Shown: in pieces, positions 3,043 to 19,312 of the stretch
Numbering within the stretch: the first letter of the stretch is position 1
Layout of the letters: each line of letters starts with the position of its first letter
Virus record (IMG/VR): IMGVR_UViG_3300025410_000018
From: an uncultured virus (IMG/VR IMGVR_UViG_3300025410_000018)
Lineage: Duplodnaviria; Heunggongvirae; Uroviricota; Caudoviricetes
Strand: one strand, 5' to 3'
DNA length: 20,000 bases
The notes under the pieces: generated by a model
Database searches by the model: none
Told to the model about the DNA's origin: nothing
The model's input: only the letters and a program-made list of their open reading frames with translations
Translations under genes and position numbers: made by a program

Positions 3043-3507
3043 CTACTTAAAAGCACCGAAATAACGCTCGGTGTGTACGTTTGATTTACTTTGATTCCAC
3101 AAAGCAGGTACTACCTGAAGATTACTAAATACACAAGTGCCTCCTTTTGAAACAGGCACTATATGATCGACATGCCAACAACCGCCAACAATTTTATTTC
3201 GTAGACGCGTTAAAGAAACCGCCTCATTCAACACAAACTTATCTATTTCAGATAAGTTTTTTTCAAAACTGCGTCTAACTATTTGGTATCGTAAGCGTGC
3301 TTGTTTTCTAGCTTCAGAAAGAGGTTTAGTAGCTCTAAGTGTTTCTATTTTAGATCTACCGCCGGAAGCAACATACGCTTTATCTTCTTTGCGTTTTTGC
3401 GCTTTGCCTTTCTCTGTTGCATAATAGCGTTTTTTAGCCGCTTTAACCTTTTCAGGATTGGCTTTTTGCCAAGCACGTATTTGAGTTATCCGTTTTTCAC
3501 TAAGCAC
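3043..3507 (-). CDS. HNH endonuclease (free-standing, homing-type)
   Basis: C-terminal WHVDHIVPVSKGG...NLQVVPALWNQSKSN motif and a K/R-rich helical N-terminus. Confidence 0.85.
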   Translation of the reverse strand: MLSEKRITQIRAWQKANPEKVKAAKKRYYATEKGKAQKRKEDKAYVASGGRSKIETLRATKPLSEARKQARLRYQIVRRSFEKNLSEIDKFVLNEAVSLTRLRNKIVGGCWHVDHIVPVSKGGTCVFSNLQVVPALWNQSKSNVHTERYFGAFK

Positions 3508-6571: not shown

Positions 6572-8089
6572 TTAATAATAAGCGGCTCTGCGCGCTCTAA
6601 AATACGAATCTTCTTTCTCATCTGAGTCCAAGCTAATGAACCCGCCCTGTCTGTACCTAAGTAGTGCTTGTGATACCGTATCCACATAGTCATCATGCTC
6701 GCCTACGGGGAATGAAGCAACTTCTTCTACAACTTCACGTGCCCACCTAGTATCAGGTGCCCACACTTTACCGCTTGTAAATAAATCAGCAACGGCATTA
6801 AGTCTCACTATCTTATCATTACCACGCGACGGTGTAAATTCCTGCACCGGTATACCCATTCTTCTTAATTCTTGAATCAACGGCGACCCCGCTGCCTTTT
6901 TCTCCACTATGAACGCATCAGGCTGCCACTCTTTGTAATGTTTAAGTGCCATCTGTTTTAGTTCTGGAAACGCCATCCTATCTTTAAAAGCGTCAAGGAG
7001 AATAATATTAGGCTGGTTTTTGTCCTCATTGTTATACCAAACGCCCCAAGTTGTACATGCAGAATAGTCAGCTGTTGTTTTAGTTTCAAACGCCGTATCC
7101 CAAGACTGTATAACATACTCACATCTAGGTGGGTCGTCTGCTTCCCAAATATTCCAGTCCTTCCTACCAATTATTGCCGCAGAATCTGCGGTTGGATTCT
7201 GCATATACTGAGCGTTCCAATATCTTGGATCAATAGATGCCTTCGTATTCTTTAGCGCTTCAAGGGGCCACTGTTCGGGCCAAAGGCTTTTCTCATCTTC
7301 TGTATCTTCGTTAAGAATCGCAGGCAGTTCTACCAATTCCCACGGAATAGTATTAGGGTTTTTAATCTGGTAGTCCAGCAATCGTCCTGTCAAGTCAAGT
7401 AATGACCATCTAGTCATAATGACTATAATAGCTCCGCCGGGCATCAAACGCTGTAACGGACCAGTCTGAAACCAACTCCAAGCAGTATCGAACGCTAAAC
7501 GAGAATTTGACTTAACGTCTTGCTCAGAATGTGGGTCATCAATAACAAATAAATCAGCGCCACGACCGGCGAGAGCGCCGCCAACACCAGCGGCATAATA
7601 TTGTCCACCTGCCCCAGTACTCCACTTGCCCGCAGCCTTCTGGTCATCCGCAACAACTGTGTCCGGAAATATTTCATGGTACTCCTCACTTTCTAATAAG
7701 TTTCTTACACGCCGTCCAAAGTCTTCTGACAAACCCGCTGTATGGGTTCCCATAATAATCTTCTTCTCAGGGTATTTACCTAGAAAGTATGCCGGAAATA
7801 AATACGAACTAAACTCAGATTTTCCCATCCTTGGTGCAATATTAATAATAACGCGCTTTTTGCGCCCCTCAACAACATCTTGGAATATTTTAGCTAAGCG
7901 TCTGTGCTGTGGTCCAATCTTAAAGCCGGGGTATATTCTTTTAGCAAACTCTAGCATGTCATCTTTAGCTAGATCAATTTCACCACGACGTTCTTTTTCT
8001 TCTAAATCTTCTAGAAACTTAAGCTTTTCCGCTTTTGTCATTAGTGGTAGCGCTTTTTGCGCTGCTTGTAGTTCTTCAGGACTTAGCAT
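6572..8089 (-). CDS. terL: Terminase large subunit
   Basis: Walker A APRMGKS, Walker B LFVIDDP, motif III IMTRW, YMQNP, and nuclease motifs SWDTA and HDDYVD. Confidence 0.95.
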   Translation of the reverse strand: MLSPEELQAAQKALPLMTKAEKLKFLEDLEEKERRGEIDLAKDDMLEFAKRIYPGFKIGPQHRRLAKIFQDVVEGRKKRVIINIAPRMGKSEFSSYLFPAYFLGKYPEKKIIMGTHTAGLSEDFGRRVRNLLESEEYHEIFPDTVVADDQKAAGKWSTGAGGQYYAAGVGGALAGRGADLFVIDDPHSEQDVKSNSRLAFDTAWSWFQTGPLQRLMPGGAIIVIMTRWSLLDLTGRLLDYQIKNPNTIPWELVELPAILNEDTEDEKSLWPEQWPLEALKNTKASIDPRYWNAQYMQNPTADSAAIIGRKDWNIWEADDPPRCEYVIQSWDTAFETKTTADYSACTTWGVWYNNEDKNQPNIILLDAFKDRMAFPELKQMALKHYKEWQPDAFIVEKKAAGSPLIQELRRMGIPVQEFTPSRGNDKIVRLNAVADLFTSGKVWAPDTRWAREVVEEVASFPVGEHDDYVDTVSQALLRYRQGGFISLDSDEKEDSYFRARRAAYY

Positions 8090-8672
8090 CGCCGCCTTCT
8101 ACCTGTTTAGATTCCACATCCACAACTTCTACTTTACCCATAAACTTACCAAGCTTCTCCTTAATACGTTTCTCAAGCTCTTCATCGCTAACATCTTCAG
8201 TTTTAACCTGTACCCTGTCAGTAAATAGGGCGACTTCTGTAACCTTACCTAGCATTTCTAAAGCTTTTAAACGTATTCTAGCGTCTGGGTGGTCAGTTTC
8301 TTGCACAATTTTTGTTACAGCCATGCTTCTAAGCTCTTCTGCCTGCTCAATAAACTTCCACTGGTATGCGCTGACCATTGCTACCGTAGATCTAATCTCT
8401 TCTGGTACTTCTAACTTTAGAAGTTGTTCTTTGGCTTTAGGGTCGGCGTTAATTAATGCGGTGAATGCTTCAACAGCTTTGGCTTCTTGCGCTTTTGACA
8501 CGATCATGTCGTCCTCTCCGGTAATATCGGCAAGCCAATCCGTCGTTTTTATCTGAGCGTCAAGTGTTTGTGAGGGAGAAATTTTATTTAAAGAGGTAAA
8601 GTCTTGCCGTTCTGCCTCTGGGACAGGTAGAAAGTCTGCTTCATTTGCTTCTACTAAGTGACTCAATAACAA
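8076..8672 (-). CDS. Terminase small subunit (putative)
   Basis: 198 aa overlapping the terL start. RLKALEMLGK is the oligomerisation-helix motif typical of TerS. TTG start with GAGAGG RBS. Confidence 0.75.
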   Translation of the reverse strand: MLLSHLVEANEADFLPVPEAERQDFTSLNKISPSQTLDAQIKTTDWLADITGEDDMIVSKAQEAKAVEAFTALINADPKAKEQLLKLEVPEEIRSTVAMVSAYQWKFIEQAEELRSMAVTKIVQETDHPDARIRLKALEMLGKVTEVALFTDRVQVKTEDVSDEELEKRIKEKLGKFMGKVEVVDVESKQVEGGDAKS

Positions 8673-8715
8673 GTTAACCTCTCTTTTTTGCGCGGTGGGT
8701 TCGCGTATGGTTTCG

Positions 8716-8724
8716 ATTGTAACA
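8716..8724 (-). promoter_or_regulatory. Candidate late-operon promoter (extended -10)
   Basis: Minus strand reads TG-T-TACAAT about 45 bp upstream of the terS start. No clear -35, so it may be activator-dependent. Confidence 0.5.
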
Positions 8725-8739
8725 GTATTTTAATTTTTT

Positions 8740-8748
8740 TGTTATACT
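8740..8748 (+). promoter_or_regulatory. Candidate sRNA promoter (extended -10)
   Basis: TG-T-TATACT directly upstream of a hairpin/terminator unit and back-to-back with the minus-strand element at 8716-8724. Confidence 0.5.
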
Positions 8749-8754
8749 GGCGTT

Positions 8755-8823
8755 GCAAGTGCTCATACATTTGCTTTTCCTTTAGTATTCTTTAGCCCCA
8801 TCCTAAGCGTTGGGGCTTTTTTT
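8755..8823 (+). ncRNA. Putative trans-acting antisense sRNA (~70 nt) with an anti-Shine-Dalgarno seed
   Basis: Upstream extended -10; 5' hairpin GCAAGTG-CTCATA-CATTTGC; exposed TTTTCCTTTAG; intrinsic terminator. 8762-8783 is complementary at 21/22 nt to 13038-13059. Confidence 0.6.
8794..8823 (+). terminator. Rho-independent terminator
   Basis: AGCCCCA-10 nt loop-TGGGGCT followed by a T run. Confidence 0.8.
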
Positions 8824-8842
8824 ATTGGCTAGTGTCTAAGAT

Positions 8843-8871
8843 TTGACATGACTCATAGGATTTTTTACAAA
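8843..8871 (+). promoter_or_regulatory. Possible sigma70 promoter overlapping an imperfect palindrome
   Basis: TTGACA (8843-8848), 17 bp, TACAAA (8866-8871). TGTCTAAGATTTGACA (8833-8848) is an imperfect palindrome and ATTTGACAT recurs at 8872. Confidence 0.35.
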
Positions 8872-8991
8872 ATTTGACATTTTTTTAAGTTGCGTGTGAG
8901 GAATAGTGATCTAGTGGACTGGACTGTCCTCGTCGATTTGAGGTGGGTTGGGGGGTAGTGGGGTAAATATAGATACTAGAATCATACCATA

Positions 8992-9000
8992 TGTTATAAT
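8992..9000 (+). promoter_or_regulatory. Early promoter (perfect extended -10)
   Basis: TG-T-TATAAT about 70 bp upstream of the first plus-strand gene. Confidence 0.7.
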
Positions 9001-9032
9001 AGAGTCATCTAGTGAGGAATTGCTAGTGTGTT

Positions 9033-9058
9033 GCCAAGCCACTTCGCTTGGCTTTTTT
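9033..9058 (+). terminator. Terminator-like hairpin in the early leader
   Basis: GCCAAGC-CACTTC-GCTTGGC followed by TTTTTT, just upstream of the GGAGG RBS at 9063-9067. Confidence 0.6.
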
Positions 9059-9071
9059 ATTTGGAGGTTTT

Positions 9072-9482
9072 ATGAAGGCTGTCTTTACGAAATACATTGA
9101 TGCTGTTGCTAAACACATTGATGCTGGTGTCTCTCTCAAAGAAGTTATGGATACAGTTAAGCCTATCTATAACAAGTCAAGCCTAGAGGAACAGTTAGAG
9201 TTGCGTAGTGCTATTGCTACACTCATTGGTAAGAAAAAGAAGGTCACACCAATCACGATTGAAAAAGGTGTTTACACAGGTTCGCTTGGTTTCAACGCAC
9301 ATGGCACAGCGAAAGAGGAACAGGCTAGAGCAATGCTTAAGTATTATATGCCAACCCATGTGGAGAAAACCTCCACAACAAGTTCTAAACAGGTAGACCC
9401 GATTGTGCAACGTGCTAACAAACTCAATAAGGATTTCACGAAAGCACAGTTACGCAAACTTGTTGCACTACTCAATGTTTAA
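9072..9482 (+). CDS. First early gene, basic hypothetical protein
   Basis: ATG 9072 follows a GGAGG RBS (preferred over the track start 9048); 136 aa. Confidence 0.75.
   Translation: MKAVFTKYIDAVAKHIDAGVSLKEVMDTVKPIYNKSSLEEQLELRSAIATLIGKKKKVTPITIEKGVYTGSLGFNAHGTAKEEQARAMLKYYMPTHVEKTSTTSSKQVDPIVQRANKLNKDFTKAQLRKLVALLNV
9360..9376. repeat. 17-bp palindromic motif, copy 1
   Basis: GTGGAG-AAAAC-CTCCAC. Confidence 0.9.
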
Positions 9483-9566
9483 TCAAACCGACAGGGATTG
9501 CGAGAGGGTGAGGCTTTACTGCTATTTCAATTCCTGTCAAATCTAACTTAACGAAAGGAAATAAAT

Positions 9567-12402: not shown

Positions 12403-12561
12403 GTGAAGTATAAGCATAGGCATGCGAAGTTAATCAAAGCGTGGGCTGATGGTGCAGTTATTCAATACAAGCACAGAACTATAAACAAATGGTTCGACTG
12501 TGAGAATAACAATCCAAGATGGCACATATCTATTAAATACAGAATCAAAAAGGAGAAGTGA
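12403..12561 (+). CDS. Small hypothetical phage protein (not in ORF track)
   Basis: 52 aa from GTG: KHRHAKLIKAWADGAVIQY...W.D...P.W....YRIK, a pattern I recall from proteobacterial phages. Confidence 0.75.
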   Translation: MKYKHRHAKLIKAWADGAVIQYKHRTINKWFDCENNNPRWHISIKYRIKKEK

Positions 12562-12562
12562 A

Positions 12563-13006
12563 ATGGGTTATAGAAGCGAAGTAGCATACGTTATTAACTT
12601 TAGTAGTAAAGAGAAGCGTGACGATTATATTAACGTAGTGTTAGCAACAGGTGATACGCATTTGATTGACGCACTAAAAGATTGTGATGTGCCGTTTGAT
12701 TCTTCGCACGATACTCGTATTAACTTCTACGCTATTGATGTGAAGTGGTATGACTCGTATGAAGATGTTAAGGCACACACTAAGTTATACAGTTGGGCAG
12801 TCGAGTTGTATCCTGACGATTGTGGGTATCGGTTTATATGTATCGGCGAAGAGGAAGGTGACATTGAGAATGATTCCGATGGCGAGGGTGATTGGATACC
12901 TGACGATGACTTTTACACCTACACATCTATGGAAGTTCCGTTCAACACACAGTATGACAAGTTTGATTTAGATAAATATTTATTAACCAAAAAGGAGGAA
13001 GCGTAA
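12563..13006 (+). CDS. Acidic hypothetical protein
   Basis: Start ATG 12563 (MGYRSEV) after AAGGAG; KWY and F.CIGEE..D motifs; 147 aa. Confidence 0.8.
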   Translation: MGYRSEVAYVINFSSKEKRDDYINVVLATGDTHLIDALKDCDVPFDSSHDTRINFYAIDVKWYDSYEDVKAHTKLYSWAVELYPDDCGYRFICIGEEEGDIENDSDGEGDWIPDDDFYTYTSMEVPFNTQYDKFDLDKYLLTKKEEA

Positions 13007-13530
13007 TGGAAGGACTAGGCAAACTACAACCACTAGAAAAGGAAAAGCAAATGAATGAGTATATCATCACAGGTTTATCAGGTAATCAATATCAACCAAT
13101 GGACACAGCACCTATACCACACACACCAACCATCAAGGAGTTATTCAATACGCTAGCAACAACCATGCAACAACTAGGCTCTCTTATTGAGAGTCACTAT
13201 CATCAGTCTTCTCAGGACAGTTTAGTTGAGGCTGTGGATACGGCGTTGGAAAACGCTGATTGGCTTTACGCTAAGTTGTCTGACTCTGTGGATAAACGCT
13301 ATGACATCGAGGATATGGTTAAGGAAGGTATGCGAGACCTTATCGAGCATGGGATACATGAGCATTTCAGTCACCAGTTTGATTTAGAAGAACACGTAGA
13401 TGTGCGTGATGCCTTAGATGACATTGTGTGCGACAGGATAGAAGACGCAGTAAAAGAAGCAATAGAGGATTTGTTAGAAGACGCAGTAGACAAAGCCCTC
13501 AAGACAGCATCAGTAAGAATCGAGTTTTAA
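13006..13530 (+). CDS. Acidic helical hypothetical protein (alternative start 13051)
   Basis: Two in-frame ATGs each have an RBS (AGGAGG before 13006, AAAGGA before 13051). The C-terminal half is D/E-rich and repetitive. Confidence 0.75.
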   Translation: MEGLGKLQPLEKEKQMNEYIITGLSGNQYQPMDTAPIPHTPTIKELFNTLATTMQQLGSLIESHYHQSSQDSLVEAVDTALENADWLYAKLSDSVDKRYDIEDMVKEGMRDLIEHGIHEHFSHQFDLEEHVDVRDALDDIVCDRIEDAVKEAIEDLLEDAVDKALKTASVRIEF

Positions 13531-13554: not shown

Positions 13555-13575
13555 AACAACTTAAGGAGAAGCAAA

Positions 13576-14304
13576 ATGCCTGTAACGGCTAAACTAACAA
13601 TACCTGTAACTATGTATACGTATGACGAACTCGACGCTCATGCTAGAGAAAAGCCACGCCAAGACTTCATTGAGCATTGGGTAGAAGATTGGTGGGCAAA
13701 CGAGTTACTTGATGAGTATAAAGCCGAAGGGCTTGAGTATGGGTTTGGTATTGAGGTTATAAACTACACAGGCTTTCATTCTCAAGGTGATGGTGCTTGT
13801 TGGGTTGGTCATGTGGGTATGCTTAAGTTTATTGATATGTTTGGTGGCAATAGCATAGGCTTCGAAGCATGGCGTTGTTTGTTTCAATCTGTTTGGGGTG
13901 GTGCTGCTAACGTCGGCATATATCGTTCAAGTAGTAGGTATTATCACAGCGAGACAATGTGCGTTGAGAGTATGGACTACGATATTGGTGCGTATATGAA
14001 TCGAGGTGACACCATAACAACGGACTCAATATTAAAAGGTATGACGTTCGATAATGCGTATGAACTAATCCAAGCAGATGCAGATTGCCAATACAAAACA
14101 CCTGAGAGTATTCAAGAGTGGGTGTTAGAAGAAGCCAAGCGATACGCTAACACTATATATAAGAAGTTGTATGAAGCGTATGAGTACGAGTGTAGTGACG
14201 AGAATATCGCTGAGGTTTACACGTGTAACAACGTGTATTTTAATGAGAAGGGAGGTCAAGTAGATAGCAGTTTAGTAGATATTTATATGAGTCAAGTAGC
14301 ATAA
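13576..14304 (+). CDS. Acidic hypothetical protein resembling the family annotated 'antitoxin of toxin-antitoxin stability system'
   Basis: N-terminal YTYDELDAHAREK, central YTGFHSQGDGA and C-terminal EYECSDENIAE...N..YFNEKG match the recalled family pattern. Function unproven. Confidence 0.55.
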   Translation: MPVTAKLTIPVTMYTYDELDAHAREKPRQDFIEHWVEDWWANELLDEYKAEGLEYGFGIEVINYTGFHSQGDGACWVGHVGMLKFIDMFGGNSIGFEAWRCLFQSVWGGAANVGIYRSSSRYYHSETMCVESMDYDIGAYMNRGDTITTDSILKGMTFDNAYELIQADADCQYKTPESIQEWVLEEAKRYANTIYKKLYEAYEYECSDENIAEVYTCNNVYFNEKGGQVDSSLVDIYMSQVA

Positions 14305-14332
14305 ACAAACTAACAACCTAAAGGAAAATACT

Positions 14333-15316
14333 ATGATAAGTTATACAGATGCATTAAACAAATACAACAAAGCACAAGCACCAAAGCACAGTAGAAGATG
14401 GTTAAATATGCCCGATCATGCACGCTATTTGAGAGGTGTTGGCATGACACACTACGGCATACATCAACGTGACAACGGCGAGGTTTATTATCGTTGCTAC
14501 GATACAGAGTTAGTTAAATTTTATCCACCCAACGAGCAAGGCGAGTATAAGGTAGAGGTCAAGTTCGTTAACACCCCAACAACAACTATGTTTTTAGACA
14601 ATCATCGGTTGAACTATGGCTATTTAGAAACAAGTTGTGGTAAGACTGTATACGTTCCGTATGTTCAGAGTGGTGGCTATCGTACTGCTGCCGTGACTGC
14701 TAGTTTGGTGTTTAATGCGTCGAACAAACTCATACTAGATAAATCATGGCATGAGGACATCTACACTAAGATATCGTCAACCGAAGACAAACGCAAACGC
14801 AAGCACTTACGTGAAGCCATCAAACATTTAGTTATGCTCAACGAGTTCAGACTACCACAATATAAATCCGACGCTACGTTAGACGGCAACTTAGGTATGC
14901 CGTTCGGCACAGGATACAAAGAACCATTTAGTTTCCAAGAACTGCGACGTGTAATTTCGTCAGAGTCTAACAGCATGCTTGATGTAGGTTCATTCAACTT
15001 CAACAGCGATAGATTCATTCATGCAGTTATGCTAACAGGTCAAGACGTATTCAACATTCTAGCTAGTCAGCGTGGCTATGCATTAAATGCGTTCCGTTAC
15101 TTCTACAGGCATGGTAAATCAGCAGAGGAGTTAGCAGAGCATGACAATATGATACGACTTCTACACAATCAAGTCATAGAAAGCGTATCGCCTGAAGACT
15201 TTAACAAATCGTTTACTAACAAGTTACTGAGTGTTTTCAATATCAAGCAAGGCACTACGCTTAAGGCTTGGGGGCAGTTCCGTGACAAGTTACCCCATAA
15301 ATGGTATACAAAATAA
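14333..15316 (+). CDS. Hypothetical protein
   Basis: 327 aa; AAAGGA RBS; no motif recognised. Confidence 0.8.
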   Translation: MISYTDALNKYNKAQAPKHSRRWLNMPDHARYLRGVGMTHYGIHQRDNGEVYYRCYDTELVKFYPPNEQGEYKVEVKFVNTPTTTMFLDNHRLNYGYLETSCGKTVYVPYVQSGGYRTAAVTASLVFNASNKLILDKSWHEDIYTKISSTEDKRKRKHLREAIKHLVMLNEFRLPQYKSDATLDGNLGMPFGTGYKEPFSFQELRRVISSESNSMLDVGSFNFNSDRFIHAVMLTGQDVFNILASQRGYALNAFRYFYRHGKSAEELAEHDNMIRLLHNQVIESVSPEDFNKSFTNKLLSVFNIKQGTTLKAWGQFRDKLPHKWYTK

Positions 15317-15439
15317 AATTAAACAAATTACTTGAAAGGAAATAAAAACTATGTAAAAATATATACATAACTAAATCAGGGAGAGACAACTCTCCCAAAC
15401 GTATTAACAAACAACTATATTTACTTAAAGGAAAATCGT

Positions 15440-16564
15440 ATGACAATGCTTTCATTTACTCAAGTTGCAAATCTTATTAAACGTGTTGGTCACAAGCGTA
15501 CTATTATCGTGCAGGGCGAGAATGGTATCGGTAAGACTGGCTTGTTTCACTTCCTCGCTAAAGACCCGTTCTTTGCTAATCATATTCACGTTGACCCTAT
15601 CGACTGCACGCAGTTGTCTGACGGCTCGGTGTGGATGCCTGATATTGACAGAGAGTTGGGTGTATCACGTGAGTTACCTAACGAACGCTTCGGTGTTAAT
15701 ACCAAGAATCAGAAAGGTATCAATGGTGCTAGACCATCATTCATATTCTTAGACGAGATAGCTAAGGCTAAGCAGTTTATCAAGGACGTGCTAGCACCGA
15801 TTGTTTATGAGCGTCGTGTTGGTAACTACCACATGGCTGAGGGTAGCGTTGTGTTCTGTGCTACTAACTTATCGGCTGAGGGCTTGGGTGATTCTATTCA
15901 GGCTCACTTACGTAATCGTCTAGTCTTTGTCACTATGCGTAAGCCTACGCAACAGGAGTGGTCAGCATGGGCTATCAATCGTGGTGGTATGGCGAGTGAG
16001 GTGCTTGCGTTTGCTGAGCAGTATCCACGTATATTCGATTCATTCCTTGACTATGAGGAAGGTGGCAAGTTCTCAGGCAAGGCGATGGAGAAAGATAACG
16101 ATATGATATTTAACCCACGCGTTATGCAGACTGCATACGCTAGCCCTCGTTCGTTACATGGTGCGTCTGACATTGTGTTAGAGAAAGATTACTTAGATGC
16201 CGACACACTTCAACACGCTTTAGAGGGTACGATTGGTAAGCCTACTGCCGATGCTATGGGTGCGTATATCAGGTTCGGTAACGAGAACCCTGACTATCAA
16301 GATATTATCAAGAGTCCAACGACTGCACGTGTAGCCGACAGTCCTGTTGCACAGATTGTTATGGCGTTCAAGTTGATTACTAACTGCGACTCACGTGAGG
16401 AAGCTGAGGCATCGACTATCTATACACAACGCTTACGCAACGAGATGCAGTCTATCTTCTGTAACACAGTAGCAAACAGTACGACTAAGATTAGCAACTT
16501 CATCACAGTCGCACCATTTCAGAAGATGTTAGCTGACAACAAGATTTATTTCACAACTAAGTAA
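15440..16564 (+). CDS. MoxR/CbbQ-like AAA+ ATPase
   Basis: Walker A GENGIGKT, Walker B FIFLDE, sensor I CATN, arginine finger LRNR, sensor II SPRS. Confidence 0.9.
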   Translation: MTMLSFTQVANLIKRVGHKRTIIVQGENGIGKTGLFHFLAKDPFFANHIHVDPIDCTQLSDGSVWMPDIDRELGVSRELPNERFGVNTKNQKGINGARPSFIFLDEIAKAKQFIKDVLAPIVYERRVGNYHMAEGSVVFCATNLSAEGLGDSIQAHLRNRLVFVTMRKPTQQEWSAWAINRGGMASEVLAFAEQYPRIFDSFLDYEEGGKFSGKAMEKDNDMIFNPRVMQTAYASPRSLHGASDIVLEKDYLDADTLQHALEGTIGKPTADAMGAYIRFGNENPDYQDIIKSPTTARVADSPVAQIVMAFKLITNCDSREEAEASTIYTQRLRNEMQSIFCNTVANSTTKISNFITVAPFQKMLADNKIYFTTK

Positions 16565-16573
16565 GGAGAAGCC

Positions 16574-17824
16574 ATGAGTACAGTATTTGATCGTATGTCC
16601 CCTGACCAACGCTTGATTGCTATTAACGTAGACTTCACGCATCACAAAGAGTTTGCTAAGTTATCAGGCGTTGCCTGTGTCGGTGTTAACATTTTCACCG
16701 ACGAGTTATCAACAGCAGGCACTAACGGCAGAGACGTTATGTATAACCCTGAGTTTGTTATGAAGCAGAGCCGTAAGCAGTTACGCTTTGTTGTTGCCCA
16801 TGAGACATTACATAAAGCCTTGCGTCATTGCACAGAGTATGACGAGATATGTAAACGTGAGCCGACTGCTAGTAATATCGCTATGGACTATGTTGTTAAC
16901 GCTATGATTCACGAAGCCGACCCTAACCTTGAGTTCGTCGAGTGGACTACTGACCCTGAGCCGTTGTTACATCAGAAGTATTATGGCTGGTCATTCGTTC
17001 AGGTTCTCAAAGATATTATGCAGAACTCTAAGACAATCAACGTCAAGCCTAAAGGTGATGGCGATGATGATGGCGATGGTGACATCAAGATGCGTGTGTT
17101 CTTTGACCCTGATGGCAAGCCGATTGACGCTGACTTTGATTCGCATATCATTGGTAAGATTTCAGATGACATCAAAGAAACCAACGACAGACAGATTAGT
17201 GATGCCAACCATCAAGGTAGTATTCTTGCTCAGAAGATTGCAGGCAAGGGCGTAGGTAATGGTGCGTTAGATGGTGCATTGGTCAAGCGTGATACTAACT
17301 GGCGTGAGTATGTTAAGGAGTGGTTAGCTTCTGTGTGCGATGGTGATGAGTATTCCAAGTACAGTCCCCCTAACAAACGTATGCTACCTTTAGGCTTCAT
17401 CATGCCATCACATTTCAGCGAGACTACTGGCGAGATTGTTGTTGCTTGCGATACGTCAGGTTCAATGGGTGGGTTATATCCTACTGTGTTCGGTGAGATT
17501 GCACGCATCTGTCAGAATCTTAACCCTGAGTCTGTGCGTGTACTGTGGTGGGAGTACGAGGTTGTCGGTGAGCAGATATTCAAGCCGATTGATTACCACA
17601 AGATCGGTTCGCTTATGAAGCCTGTGGGTGGTGGTGGCACACGTGTTACCTGTGTCGCTGAGTATATCGAGAGTAATCGTATCAAACCAAAAGGTATTAT
17701 CTATCTGACCGACGGCTACATCGAGTCAGACTATCGCTTGCCTGACTTCCCTGTGTTGTTTGGTGCAGTAGATAATGATTCATTCGTAGCATCACGTGGT
17801 AAGACTGTTCGTATTTATTCGTGA
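16574..17824 (+). CDS. HExxH metallopeptidase-like + VWA domain protein (DUF2201-like)
   Basis: TAGTNG, HETLH and NIAMDYVVN in the N-terminal part; MIDAS DTSGS, GGGGT and YLTDGY in the C-terminal part. Confidence 0.9.
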   Translation: MSTVFDRMSPDQRLIAINVDFTHHKEFAKLSGVACVGVNIFTDELSTAGTNGRDVMYNPEFVMKQSRKQLRFVVAHETLHKALRHCTEYDEICKREPTASNIAMDYVVNAMIHEADPNLEFVEWTTDPEPLLHQKYYGWSFVQVLKDIMQNSKTINVKPKGDGDDDGDGDIKMRVFFDPDGKPIDADFDSHIIGKISDDIKETNDRQISDANHQGSILAQKIAGKGVGNGALDGALVKRDTNWREYVKEWLASVCDGDEYSKYSPPNKRMLPLGFIMPSHFSETTGEIVVACDTSGSMGGLYPTVFGEIARICQNLNPESVRVLWWEYEVVGEQIFKPIDYHKIGSLMKPVGGGGTRVTCVAEYIESNRIKPKGIIYLTDGYIESDYRLPDFPVLFGAVDNDSFVASRGKTVRIYS

Positions 17825-18396: not shown

Positions 18397-18436
18397 TATT
18401 TATTTTTAAACAATTAACACTAAAGGAAAACATAAT

Positions 18437-19312
18437 ATGAACGCTAGATATAACATCGACACTTGTGCAATGTTGGTTGAGTTTAATGCAAGCCAATGGA
18501 CTGCACGCAAGTTAGATAAGAGTACCACCGATGAAGTTCTCAAAGGCAAGCAAGCAGGTGATAAAGGTGCGGCTCGTGTTAACAAGAACTTACTCGCAGG
18601 TCGTAAAGAGTTAGAGATTATCAACCAGTTAGTAGGTGAGGTACGTACCTATATGTATAACAACACCTTGCCGTGGAGTGATACAGGTATTCGCTTACTG
18701 CCTACTGCTAAGTTCATGGACTTTAATGATACGATGGCTACCTACGAAAGTAAGTTCAATGATTTAGTTGACGAATTTATTTCTGTTTATCCTACGCTGA
18801 TTACTGCTCAGGCTATGGCGTTGGGTGATATGTTTAACAGAAGTGATTTCCCTGCACCTAGTGATATTGCTCATCGCTTTAACTTCCGTCTTAACTTCAT
18901 GCCTGTACCAACGGCAGGTGATTTTCGTATTGACGTAGGTAATGACGCTCAGAAAGAAATTAAGGAGAAGCTTTCCAAACTTGCTGACGAGCGTATTGAT
19001 AATGCGATGCGTGATATAAAGACTAGACTCAAAGACCATCTAGCTAGAATGTCTGACAGGTTAGCCGTAGATGTTATTAACCAAGAAGTCAAGACAAGAA
19101 CATTCCACGATAGCTTACTGCATACTGCACATGACTTATGTAATCTAGTTAAGTCGCTTAATGTAACTAACGATCAAAGCTTAGAAGAAGCACGCAAGGC
19201 GTTAGAGAAAGCTATCAATGGTGTTGATATTCAAGACTTACGTAAGGATATGCCTACTCGTAACGAGGTCAAGGCTAATGTCGATGAGATTTTAAACAAG
19301 TTCAGTTTCTAA
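18437..19312 (+). CDS. DUF3150-like helical protein, probable partner of the AAA+/VWA pair
   Basis: 291 aa with WTARKLD, TLPW...G.RLLP and FP...I..RF motifs. Family assignment rests on recall and gene context. Confidence 0.55.
   Translation: MNARYNIDTCAMLVEFNASQWTARKLDKSTTDEVLKGKQAGDKGAARVNKNLLAGRKELEIINQLVGEVRTYMYNNTLPWSDTGIRLLPTAKFMDFNDTMATYESKFNDLVDEFISVYPTLITAQAMALGDMFNRSDFPAPSDIAHRFNFRLNFMPVPTAGDFRIDVGNDAQKEIKEKLSKLADERIDNAMRDIKTRLKDHLARMSDRLAVDVINQEVKTRTFHDSLLHTAHDLCNLVKSLNVTNDQSLEEARKALEKAINGVDIQDLRKDMPTRNEVKANVDEILNKFSF

Follow-up and report, generated by a model that had tools for sequence, protein, structure and literature searches.

The sar RNA of phage P22 is a small antisense RNA that occludes a ribosome-binding site (RBS). 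In bacteria, small RNAs (sRNAs) resembling the anti-Shine-Dalgarno sequence use an exposed C/U-rich motif to pair with the Shine-Dalgarno (SD) regions of several mRNAs. Phage T4 encodes proteins that turn down the translation of early mRNAs at their start regions or SD sequences as infection proceeds, namely the RNA-binding protein RegA and the endoribonuclease RegB. The c4 RNA of phages P1 and P7 targets complementary sequences outside the place where it is encoded, according to the text of PMC12197685. Here we describe a candidate small-RNA gene at 8740–8823 (+ strand) of a 20,000-nt stretch of DNA (the window) from the uncultured virus IMGVR_UViG_3300025410_000018. The window is the minus strand of an IMG/VR viral contig of 36.5 kb with an estimated completeness of 56%, and the small-RNA locus sits in the divergent gap between a leftward and a rightward block of genes. 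Leftward from 8672 run the packaging and structural genes (a terS-position protein, the large terminase TerL at 8089–6572, the portal and the major head protein), and the non-structural genes run rightward from a first start at ATG 9072.

Most of the regulatory RNAs known in phages come from a handful of temperate coliphages and prophages, and each acts on one gene or on host targets. The RNA described here is like sar and c4 in being small, phage-encoded and terminator-ended and, as we propose, in pairing around an RBS to block translation. However, sar and c4 each regulate a single antirepressor gene or operon within the immunity region of a temperate phage, whereas here several dispersed predicted targets carry a common signature, and the RNA gene is found at the head of the packaging operon of what appears to be a phage of 65 kb infecting uncultured freshwater hosts. 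Neither sequence comparison nor Rfam linked it to sar or c4. The proposed logic is that of T4 RegA and RegB, except that the recogniser would be a base-pairing RNA. Its best Rfam likeness, far below threshold, is to the short, terminator-ended RNAs RF02278 (a toxic sRNA of Betaproteobacteria) and RF00519 (mmgR), but these are chromosomal, usually hold their motif in loops and have no co-varying phage start-site signature. The closest systems are sar and c4 by mechanism, RegA and RegB by logic and the anti-SD-like bacterial sRNAs by motif, while by sequence the RNA is a member of none of them. In the text of the literature searched we found no account of this RNA family or of a phage sRNA aimed at the phage's own early starts, and we regard the unit as an RNA family not described before and as a further form of RBS-occluding phage RNA.

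The small-RNA unit is composed of four parts:
8740–8748, + strand: extended -10 element TGTTATACT of the small-RNA promoter (promoter scan: GTAACA-18-TATACT with TG)
8755–8774, + strand: 5′ hairpin (helix 1), GCAAGUG-loop-CAUUUGC, 7 bp with one G:U pair (RNAfold)
8775–8793, + strand: unpaired U/C-rich core UUUUCCUUUAGUAUUCUUU, 19 nt, unpaired in both the minimum free energy and the centroid fold
8794–8823, + strand: intrinsic terminator, AGCCCCA-loop-UGGGGCU followed by a U run (sequence and RNAfold)

The original prediction, made from the letters of the window, had described an extended -10 at 8740–8748, a 5′ hairpin, a linker and an intrinsic terminator delimiting about 70 nt, and all of these are present in the sequence or the fold. 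It had also claimed that the + strand contains no open reading frame (ORF), which is not correct, as the ORF list holds a 35-codon TTG ORF at 8688–8795 (+) that starts upstream of the promoter. The predicted 69-nt RNA (8755–8823, +) folds with −19.8 kcal/mol and z = −3.84 in RNAfold, and the terminator stem, read from the sequence, is not followed by a U run on the − strand. A start-site signature, presented below, is complementary to the core plus the 3′ arm of helix 1. In the nearest non-identical relative (contig L005, TerL 94% identical) the extended -10 reads TGGTATACT, keeping TGnTATACT on the + strand, and the two stems and the U run are preserved as well. Its terminator stem differs from that of the window by a compensatory change from A-U to G-C and has an entirely different loop, and its helix 1 keeps the stem with 4/6 loop bases changed. 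A second phage has an identical RNA locus, with 3 differences over 501 compared bases and none within 8740–8823. Taken with the family comparisons that follow, 8755–8823 is very probably a real + strand RNA gene.

A scan with TerL returned 598 relatives, 80 of which were kept and examined. The 320 nt upstream of the terS-like gene were taken from all relatives reaching that far, which gave 56 distinct sequences with terS-like identities of 39%–77%, and the small-RNA unit is present in the same orientation in 56/56. A terminator screen located the main terminator in most of them; in 8 it stopped at an upstream hairpin, and the unit was then placed by the promoter/unit scan and a covariance model. 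In the orientation of the window, the common order is a -35/-10 pair, a unit of 69–126 nt, a GC-rich hairpin with T5-11, and an early promoter resembling TTGACA-N17-TATAAT. A TTGnnn-N16-18-TAnnnT element occupies the small-RNA promoter position in 40/41 distant relatives, all aligned members have the GC hairpin followed by a T run, and the block TGC-TTCTCCT is invariant in 27/27 aligned distant relatives while the hairpins on both sides of it vary.

The covariance model (R1; 83 model positions) was built from these 27 distant relatives with the window left out. It matches the window at 8753–8824 (+) over model positions 1–83/83 with 40.7 bits and E 1.2e-7. This is its only match in the window and it lies, as in the relatives, between the terS-like gene and the early promoters; every related contig likewise has one strong match, which in all cases lies upstream of the terS-like gene and runs antisense to it. 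An alignment of 67 distinct rows has 95.6% paired cells, against 75.7% in shuffles and 42–52% in slid controls, and double (both-side) changes at 18/19 pairs, counts that are biased upwards by the fitting of the alignment to the R1 structure and are to that extent a point against our reading. Helix 1 has double changes at all 7 pairs and, with 119 of its 436 cells being G:U, is 96.3% paired on the + strand but 69.7% on the opposite strand; because so many cells are G:U, it pairs well as a + strand RNA only. The terminator (helix 3 of the family) is 98.9% paired with double changes at 6/7 pairs. Neither the strand asymmetry of helix 1 nor the comparison with L005 depends on the alignment bias. 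The whole window gave 0 matches to Rfam 15 at gathering thresholds, and the best sub-threshold hits on the element (E up to 10) were RF02278 (21 bits, threshold 50) and RF00519 (20.3 bits, threshold 41). The nearest cultured relatives by TerL are the Pelagibacter phages HTVC027P and HTVC023P (~50% identity). R1 found no credible match in the TerL neighbourhoods of HTVC027P and phage DSL-LC04 (best E 0.085), both of which have a different gene order there, and blastn of 8300–9500 found no match among 50,697 cultured-phage records. Taken together, these comparisons provide good support for a conserved small-RNA gene. The TerL scan suggests that the family spans hundreds of contigs of an abundant group of uncultured freshwater phages, and R1 can be used to annotate the RNA in metagenomes.

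The connection between the RNA and the start regions of other genes was analysed in six genomes: the contig that contains the window and five relatives taken at full length, among them G007, which is complete at 65.6 kb. We use early for the + strand gene block and late for the − strand block, labels that were assigned from gene content and strand. A start region was defined as −22 to +5 and counted when at least 10 nt were identical to the complement of the genome's own RNA core. Such start regions number 18/182 on the early strand and 0/147 on the late strand (Fisher p = 2e-5). The RBS before 4136 has TAAAGGAAA, as had been stated. In G007 the core complement matches 4 start regions, whereas any of the 93 real start regions matches at most 2 of the others. 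The corresponding numbers for G003 are 3 and, among 44 real ones, at most 1; in the window's genome 1/58 real start regions matches others as well as the core complement does. A duplex scan of G007 with every 30-nt window on both strands placed early-strand start regions at 7/10 of the best non-self sites (5/6 of the best), two of the seven being our own reading, away from a called start. The five relatives have 15 copies of the motif GGAGAAGCA on their early strands, 14 of which directly precede an ORF start, and the full GGAGAAGCAAATG is found four times in G006 and three times in G007.

Three signatures could be distinguished, each confined to its own lineage and each the complement of that lineage's core:
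Window lineage: signature TAAAGGAAA, RNA core UUUUCCUUUAG, start regions CTAAAGGAAAA
Groups B–D: signature ACGAAGGAG, RNA core CUCCUUCGUUUGG, start regions CCAACGAAGGAG
Distant group: signature GGAGAAGCA, RNA core UUGCUUCUCCUUGA

A finer change of the same kind is seen within the distant group. One clade has an extra U in the RNA (GCUUUCUCC) and only GGAGAAAGC start regions (7 vs 0), whereas the other contigs of the group (GCUUCUCC) have 17 GGAGAAGCA start regions vs 6 (Fisher p = 8e-4 for the contrast), and one ortholog group (133–149 aa) shows exactly the matching start-site change. Covariation of seed and targets in related phages had been proposed as a check, and the signature does differ between lineages in step with the RNA. 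A link between the RNA and the early-strand start-site signature is supported by the strand bias and the lineage co-variation, and the signature would predict sets of co-regulated genes in genomes with hardly any genes of known function.

The predicted pairing sites in the window are as follows:
13038–13059, + strand: best predicted pairing site, 21/22 nt, duplex −22.7 kcal/mol; SD-like motif and in-frame ATG 13051 (codon 16)
13560–13578, + strand: start region of gene 13576–14304, CTTAAGGAGAAGCAAAATG, 13 contiguous pairs including one G:U, −20.2 kcal/mol
12545–12565, + strand: start region of gene 12563–13006, AAAAGGAGAAGTGAAATG, 14 contiguous pairs with G:U, −19.6 kcal/mol
14318–14335, + strand: start region of gene 14333–15316, CTAAAGGAAAA, 11-nt perfect complement
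15425–15442, + strand: start region of the AAA-type ATPase gene 15440–16564, 10-nt perfect complement
18419–18439, + strand: start region of gene 18437–19312 (DUF3150), 12-nt perfect complement

The shorter perfect matches that had been noted at 18419–18430 (12 nt), 14318–14328 (11 nt) and 15426–15435 (10 nt) are all present, and the earlier observation on G:U pairing also holds, since the window's core, with its C-to-U change, still pairs with GGAGAA through G:U. The 13-mer CTAAAGGAAAAGC occurs 8 times with at most two mismatches, against 0.64 expected. Five of these sites lie just before + strand starts or in-frame ATGs and one is the RNA locus itself; the remaining two, at 2753 (−) and 10683 (+), are away from starts. 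The best duplex windows of the window's genome are at 13029 (the internal site, −22.7 kcal/mol), 13549, 12144 and 12539.

The longest match was the showpiece of the original prediction: the reverse complement of 8762–8783 (AAAGGAAAAGCAAATGTATGAG) matches 13038–13059 at 21/22 nt. The match is real, and the 22-mer with at most three mismatches is found only at 8762–8783 (−) and 13038–13059 (+), where 0.00 occurrences are expected (200 dinucleotide shuffles). The site does cover an SD-like motif and ATG 13051, but this ATG is internal and in frame within ORF 13006–13530. As ATG 13006 has its own strong SD, AAAGGAGGAAG, and the protein of a relative aligns from residue 1, the 22-mer may be an internal or alternative start and not the only RBS of the gene. 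The phage with the identical RNA locus (3 differences over 501 bases) has AGAGGAGAAGCAAATGGACGCA at the 13038 site together with a 30-nt in-frame insertion, so that 16 pairs survive, two G:U pairs among them; this variant makes the 21/22 match recent, local and lineage-specific, and its importance had been overstated. The surrounding sequence is a hypervariable patch of gene 13006–13530, with the 30-nt in-frame insertion, a 3-nt deletion and 6/22 changes around the internal SD and ATG. In the alignment of 13006–13060 with L083:1500–1590 the flanks of the patch are ~98% identical, yet the first 15–25 codons of 13006–13530 diverge sharply.

We propose that a trans-acting RNA of ~69 nt pairs with the marked + strand start regions and blocks their translation, a reading to which we give about an even chance of being right. 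Transcription of RNA 8755–8823 would begin at its own extended -10 promoter and stop at the intrinsic terminator. The core resembles an anti-SD sequence and, together with the 3′ arm of the 5′ hairpin, complements a signature made up of the SD, the spacer and often the AUG. About one tenth of the + strand (non-structural, presumably early) genes, and no structural (late) gene, are marked in this way. As the pairing spans both SD and AUG, repression is the natural direction: pairing would block binding of the 30S subunit and may trigger decay, and the accumulating RNA would damp or shut off translation of the marked gene set. As its promoter and that of the packaging operon point away from each other side by side, their activity may be regulated jointly or in opposition. 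We infer the expression of the RNA, repression by pairing and its timing. The original proposal of one trans-acting RNA silencing a regulon of early genes is partly supported, in that the RNA gene, the complementarity of core and starts and the co-variation are borne out by comparison. If the reading is true, the RNA would be a counterpart of early shut-off of the T4 RegA/RegB type.

Several observations weigh against trans-acting repression. The A/U-rich TAAAGGAAAA sites match the core perfectly but form weak duplexes, none of which is in the genome's top 25. Orthologs often do not keep the signature; the match of window gene 18437, for example, is 12 nt long and that of its G007 ortholog 6. 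The window's start regions fit three of the five other cores about as well as the window's own (3 vs 2–3), the other two scoring 0–1. An antisense copy of any good start region is complementary to other good start regions, and concerted evolution of short repeats could mimic co-variation. The Fisher tests ignore phylogeny and overstate the support, because the lineage contrasts represent perhaps 3–4 independent events, and genes and starts were called with a simple ORF and SD script and early or late from strand, not with a validated gene finder. The public sequencing runs listed as containing the phage comprise 24 DNA runs and no RNA run. Finally, an ATG follows the minus-strand SD in 32/53 relatives, which is above chance.

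This last point concerns the − strand of the locus, where the following features were identified:
8663–8770, − strand: 35-codon ORF with SD and ATG complementary to the RNA core, judged not to be a conserved gene
8716–8724, − strand: extended -10-like element TGTTACAAT facing the terS-like gene (promoter scan: ATAACA-18-TACAAT with TG)
8076–8672, − strand: terS-position protein, 198 aa, start TTG 8672 with SD GAGAGG, upstream of the large terminase

The SD-like motif on the − strand is always present in the relatives. A start codon 3–11 nt after it is ATG in 32/53, GTG or TTG in 6/53 and missing in 15/53, and most members of groups B–D belong to those without one. The complement of the ATG, CAU, is part of the 3′ arm of helix 1, and where the ATG is lost the stem is, by our reading of the alignment and consistent with the pair counts, kept by G:U pairs. 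Over all relatives the ORF varies between 1 and 36 codons, and a reading of the peptides shows the conserved bases translated in three different frames. A Cys..Cys spacing in some of the minus-strand peptides was not accepted as a sign of a real mini-protein, because the fixed -35/-10 geometry yields it and the frames differ. The mini-ORF may be translated in some lineages but does not appear to be the conserved feature. The -10-like element at 8716–8724 (−) is kept in L005 and stands back to back with the small-RNA promoter, each -10 lying where the -35 of the other promoter would be; in distant relatives the two -10 elements overlap within the palindrome GTGTACAC. From this arrangement we infer that the small-RNA and packaging-operon promoters exclude each other. 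Overlapping back-to-back promoters suggest joint switching or competition, which fits an early-to-late role without showing it.

The minus-strand start is the basis of an unlikely alternative, a cis-antisense RNA resembling P22 sar. Its target would be a small upstream ORF of the minus-strand transcript that is coupled to the terS-like gene, so that the RNA would gate the late packaging operon and the similarity to early starts would be a by-product. Complementarity to such a target is perfect by construction, the self site being the top duplex with −35.7 kcal/mol. In the window, the stop of the 35-codon ORF (8665–8663) overlaps the TTG start 8672. The ATG follows the SD by 4–7 nt in the 32/53 relatives that have it, in several relatives the ORF stops 6 nt short of the terS-like start, overlaps it or continues into it in frame, and the terS-like gene of the distant group has, by eye, no visible SD of its own. 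The ORF itself is poorly kept. Besides the 15/53 relatives without a start, the 6 with GTG or TTG encode only 5–15 codons and one has an ATG followed immediately by a stop, while a 1-nt indel in L005 puts the codons beyond about the 20th into another frame. Together with the use of three frames, these findings also speak against the case that the original prediction had named as refuting it, that the segment is merely the RBS of the 35-aa ORF 8770–8663. In addition, a conserved -35/-10-like pair facing the terS-like gene lies, by eye, downstream of the ATG, so the packaging mRNA may not contain it. A cis-acting RNA also leaves the early-strand bias and the co-variation of start regions elsewhere unexplained.

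Another possibility, which we consider quite improbable, is that the RNA is directed at the host, the anti-SD-like core pairing with many host SDs or mimicking the 16S 3′ end and so contributing to host shut-off or to the reprogramming of particular host mRNAs, and that the phage sites are tolerated or incidental. The core (UUCUCCUU or UUUUCCUUU) is indeed the complement of a generic SD, the only Rfam likeness, below threshold, is to bacterial sRNAs with pyrimidine-rich motifs (RF02278, RF00519), and phage sRNAs that target the host are described in the literature (PMC12197685; bioRxiv 10.1101/2024.10.31.621285). But the complementarity in the phage does not stop at the SD and continues across the spacer up to the AUG (GGAGAAGCAAATG), and this extension, the restriction of the signature to one strand and its change with the RNA would all go unexplained. 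It is very improbable that there is no functional RNA and that the locus is regulatory DNA between divergent operons, with overlapping promoters, a terminator that insulates the early promoters and also serves as an A/T-rich UP-like element, and a fortuitous or vestigial minus-strand start. The region is crowded with promoter-like elements and repeats, a T run lies at UP-element distance from a downstream TTGACA, and no public RNA run contains the phage; yet a core of 10–14 nt does not vary at all although the hairpins on its two sides do, the covariation of helix 1 relies on G:U pairs and so makes sense for a + strand RNA alone, and the spacing from promoter to terminator stays at 69–126 nt, a combination that is hard to explain at the DNA level.

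A trans-acting RNA with a signature at its target starts has a possible parallel in the Cluster K mycobacteriophages. Their start-associated sequence (SAS) is described in the text of PMC3203893 as a conserved motif that includes an SD core and extends beyond what pairing with 16S rRNA needs, is repeated just upstream of the starts of some non-structural genes, is absent from structural genes, and, one reverse copy excepted, always points the same way. Two later papers, from 2024 and 2025 (PMC11373665, PMC12699233), still state in their text that its role is unknown, and we found no RNA partner for it in the text of the literature searched. As with SAS, the freshwater signature is a start-associated motif on a subset of non-structural and not of structural genes, and only this positional logic is common to the two. 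The Cluster K motif is the 13-bp GGGATAGGAGCCC, whereas the window signatures are CTAAAGGAAAA and AAGGAGAAGCAA, and host phylum and copy number differ.

The genome of Adephagia (JF704105) has 16 forward copies of SAS and 1 reverse copy. The reverse copy is found in a 433-nt gap between genes 92 and 93 (L113 46575–46740; record 58574–58739), reads CCUCCUAUCC on the + strand and lies in the 10-nt loop of a very stable hairpin (z = −7.45 for a stretch of 141 nt), unlike the core of the freshwater RNA, which is in a linear linker. The 166-nt region was found in 161 Mycobacterium phage records, 140 of them at ≥80% coverage, and is mostly unannotated. Among seven diverged members an upstream TAGACT is invariant, the loop motif is kept in 5/7 and double changes occur at 9/44 predicted pairs. 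The Adephagia hairpin may be an RNA partner for the SAS motif. A broader, tentative generalisation, which we regard as doubtful, is that unrelated phage lineages each mark a non-structural regulon with an extended signature and encode one complementary small RNA that would set the translation of the whole marked set in time, core and signature co-evolving as a private address code, with the freshwater family as the first example and SAS explained likewise. SAS has been unexplained since 2011, and an address code, if true, would account for it. Should the freshwater RNA work as proposed, it would also give a testable answer to why some phage start motifs, SAS included, exceed the needs of ribosome binding; Cluster K phages are in culture, with a safe laboratory host (M. 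smegmatis mc2 155 for Adephagia) and published RNA-seq data (PMC11373665).

The phage sequence is 100% identical in several metagenomes, and the window differs from the genome record at a single one of its 20,000 bases (4754, T in the window and C in the record). A search for the host by scanning species genomes with TerL returned 8 short contigs of metagenome-assembled genomes (MAGs) in bins of unrelated phyla, 3 of them Burkholderiales/Rhodocyclaceae, and no host was assigned because the MAG bins with related contigs disagree. A phi29-type packaging RNA was considered as an identity for the unit and dropped, the only common feature being a position near the packaging genes. The 198-aa terS-like protein matched no Pfam or PHROG family, and its tblastn alignments to the 80 relatives start at residue 1 or 2 in most cases. 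Its lack of a visible SD before the ATG in the distant group can be seen by eye at, e.g., L080:3350–3420 and in L032. The distant terS-like leaders also contain, by eye, a hairpin with an apparent compensatory change (AGTAC..GTACT vs AGTGC..GCACT) and a conserved CAACGAGG.

Further control elements are found between the small-RNA unit and the first + strand gene. Tandem repeats at 8838–8885 (+), each with TTGACA and with TACAAA or TACAGA 17 nt downstream, are present in two copies in the window and four in L005 (L005:1000–1110), and are probably stacked early promoters or operators. Distant relatives have at this place the palindrome TGTCCAACGTTTGACA followed by a TATAAT-like box and the G-rich tract GGGGGGTGGGG. 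A second extended -10, TGTTATAAT, at 8990–8998 (+) is followed after ~45 nt by a hairpin and intrinsic terminator (9033–9058). This 8990–9058 unit directly precedes the SD and ATG 9072 of the first + strand gene, so that transcription of this gene apparently has to pass the terminator. L005 conserves nearly all of the unit, which folds with −18.6 kcal/mol (z −3.0), has a sub-threshold Rfam match to RprA (32 bits vs 70) and may represent another small RNA or an attenuator.

Within the head-assembly block, an HNH/endonuclease VII-like gene at 3043–3507 (−; PHROG 1035) adjoins a protein with a GroES-like region (PHROG 3188). On the + strand, the AAA-type ATPase (PHROG 1297) stands beside a DUF2201 metallopeptidase-like/VWA-like protein (15440–17824), both with start regions of the signature type, and we take these neighbours to resemble MoxR-VWA or CobS-CobT-like pairs.

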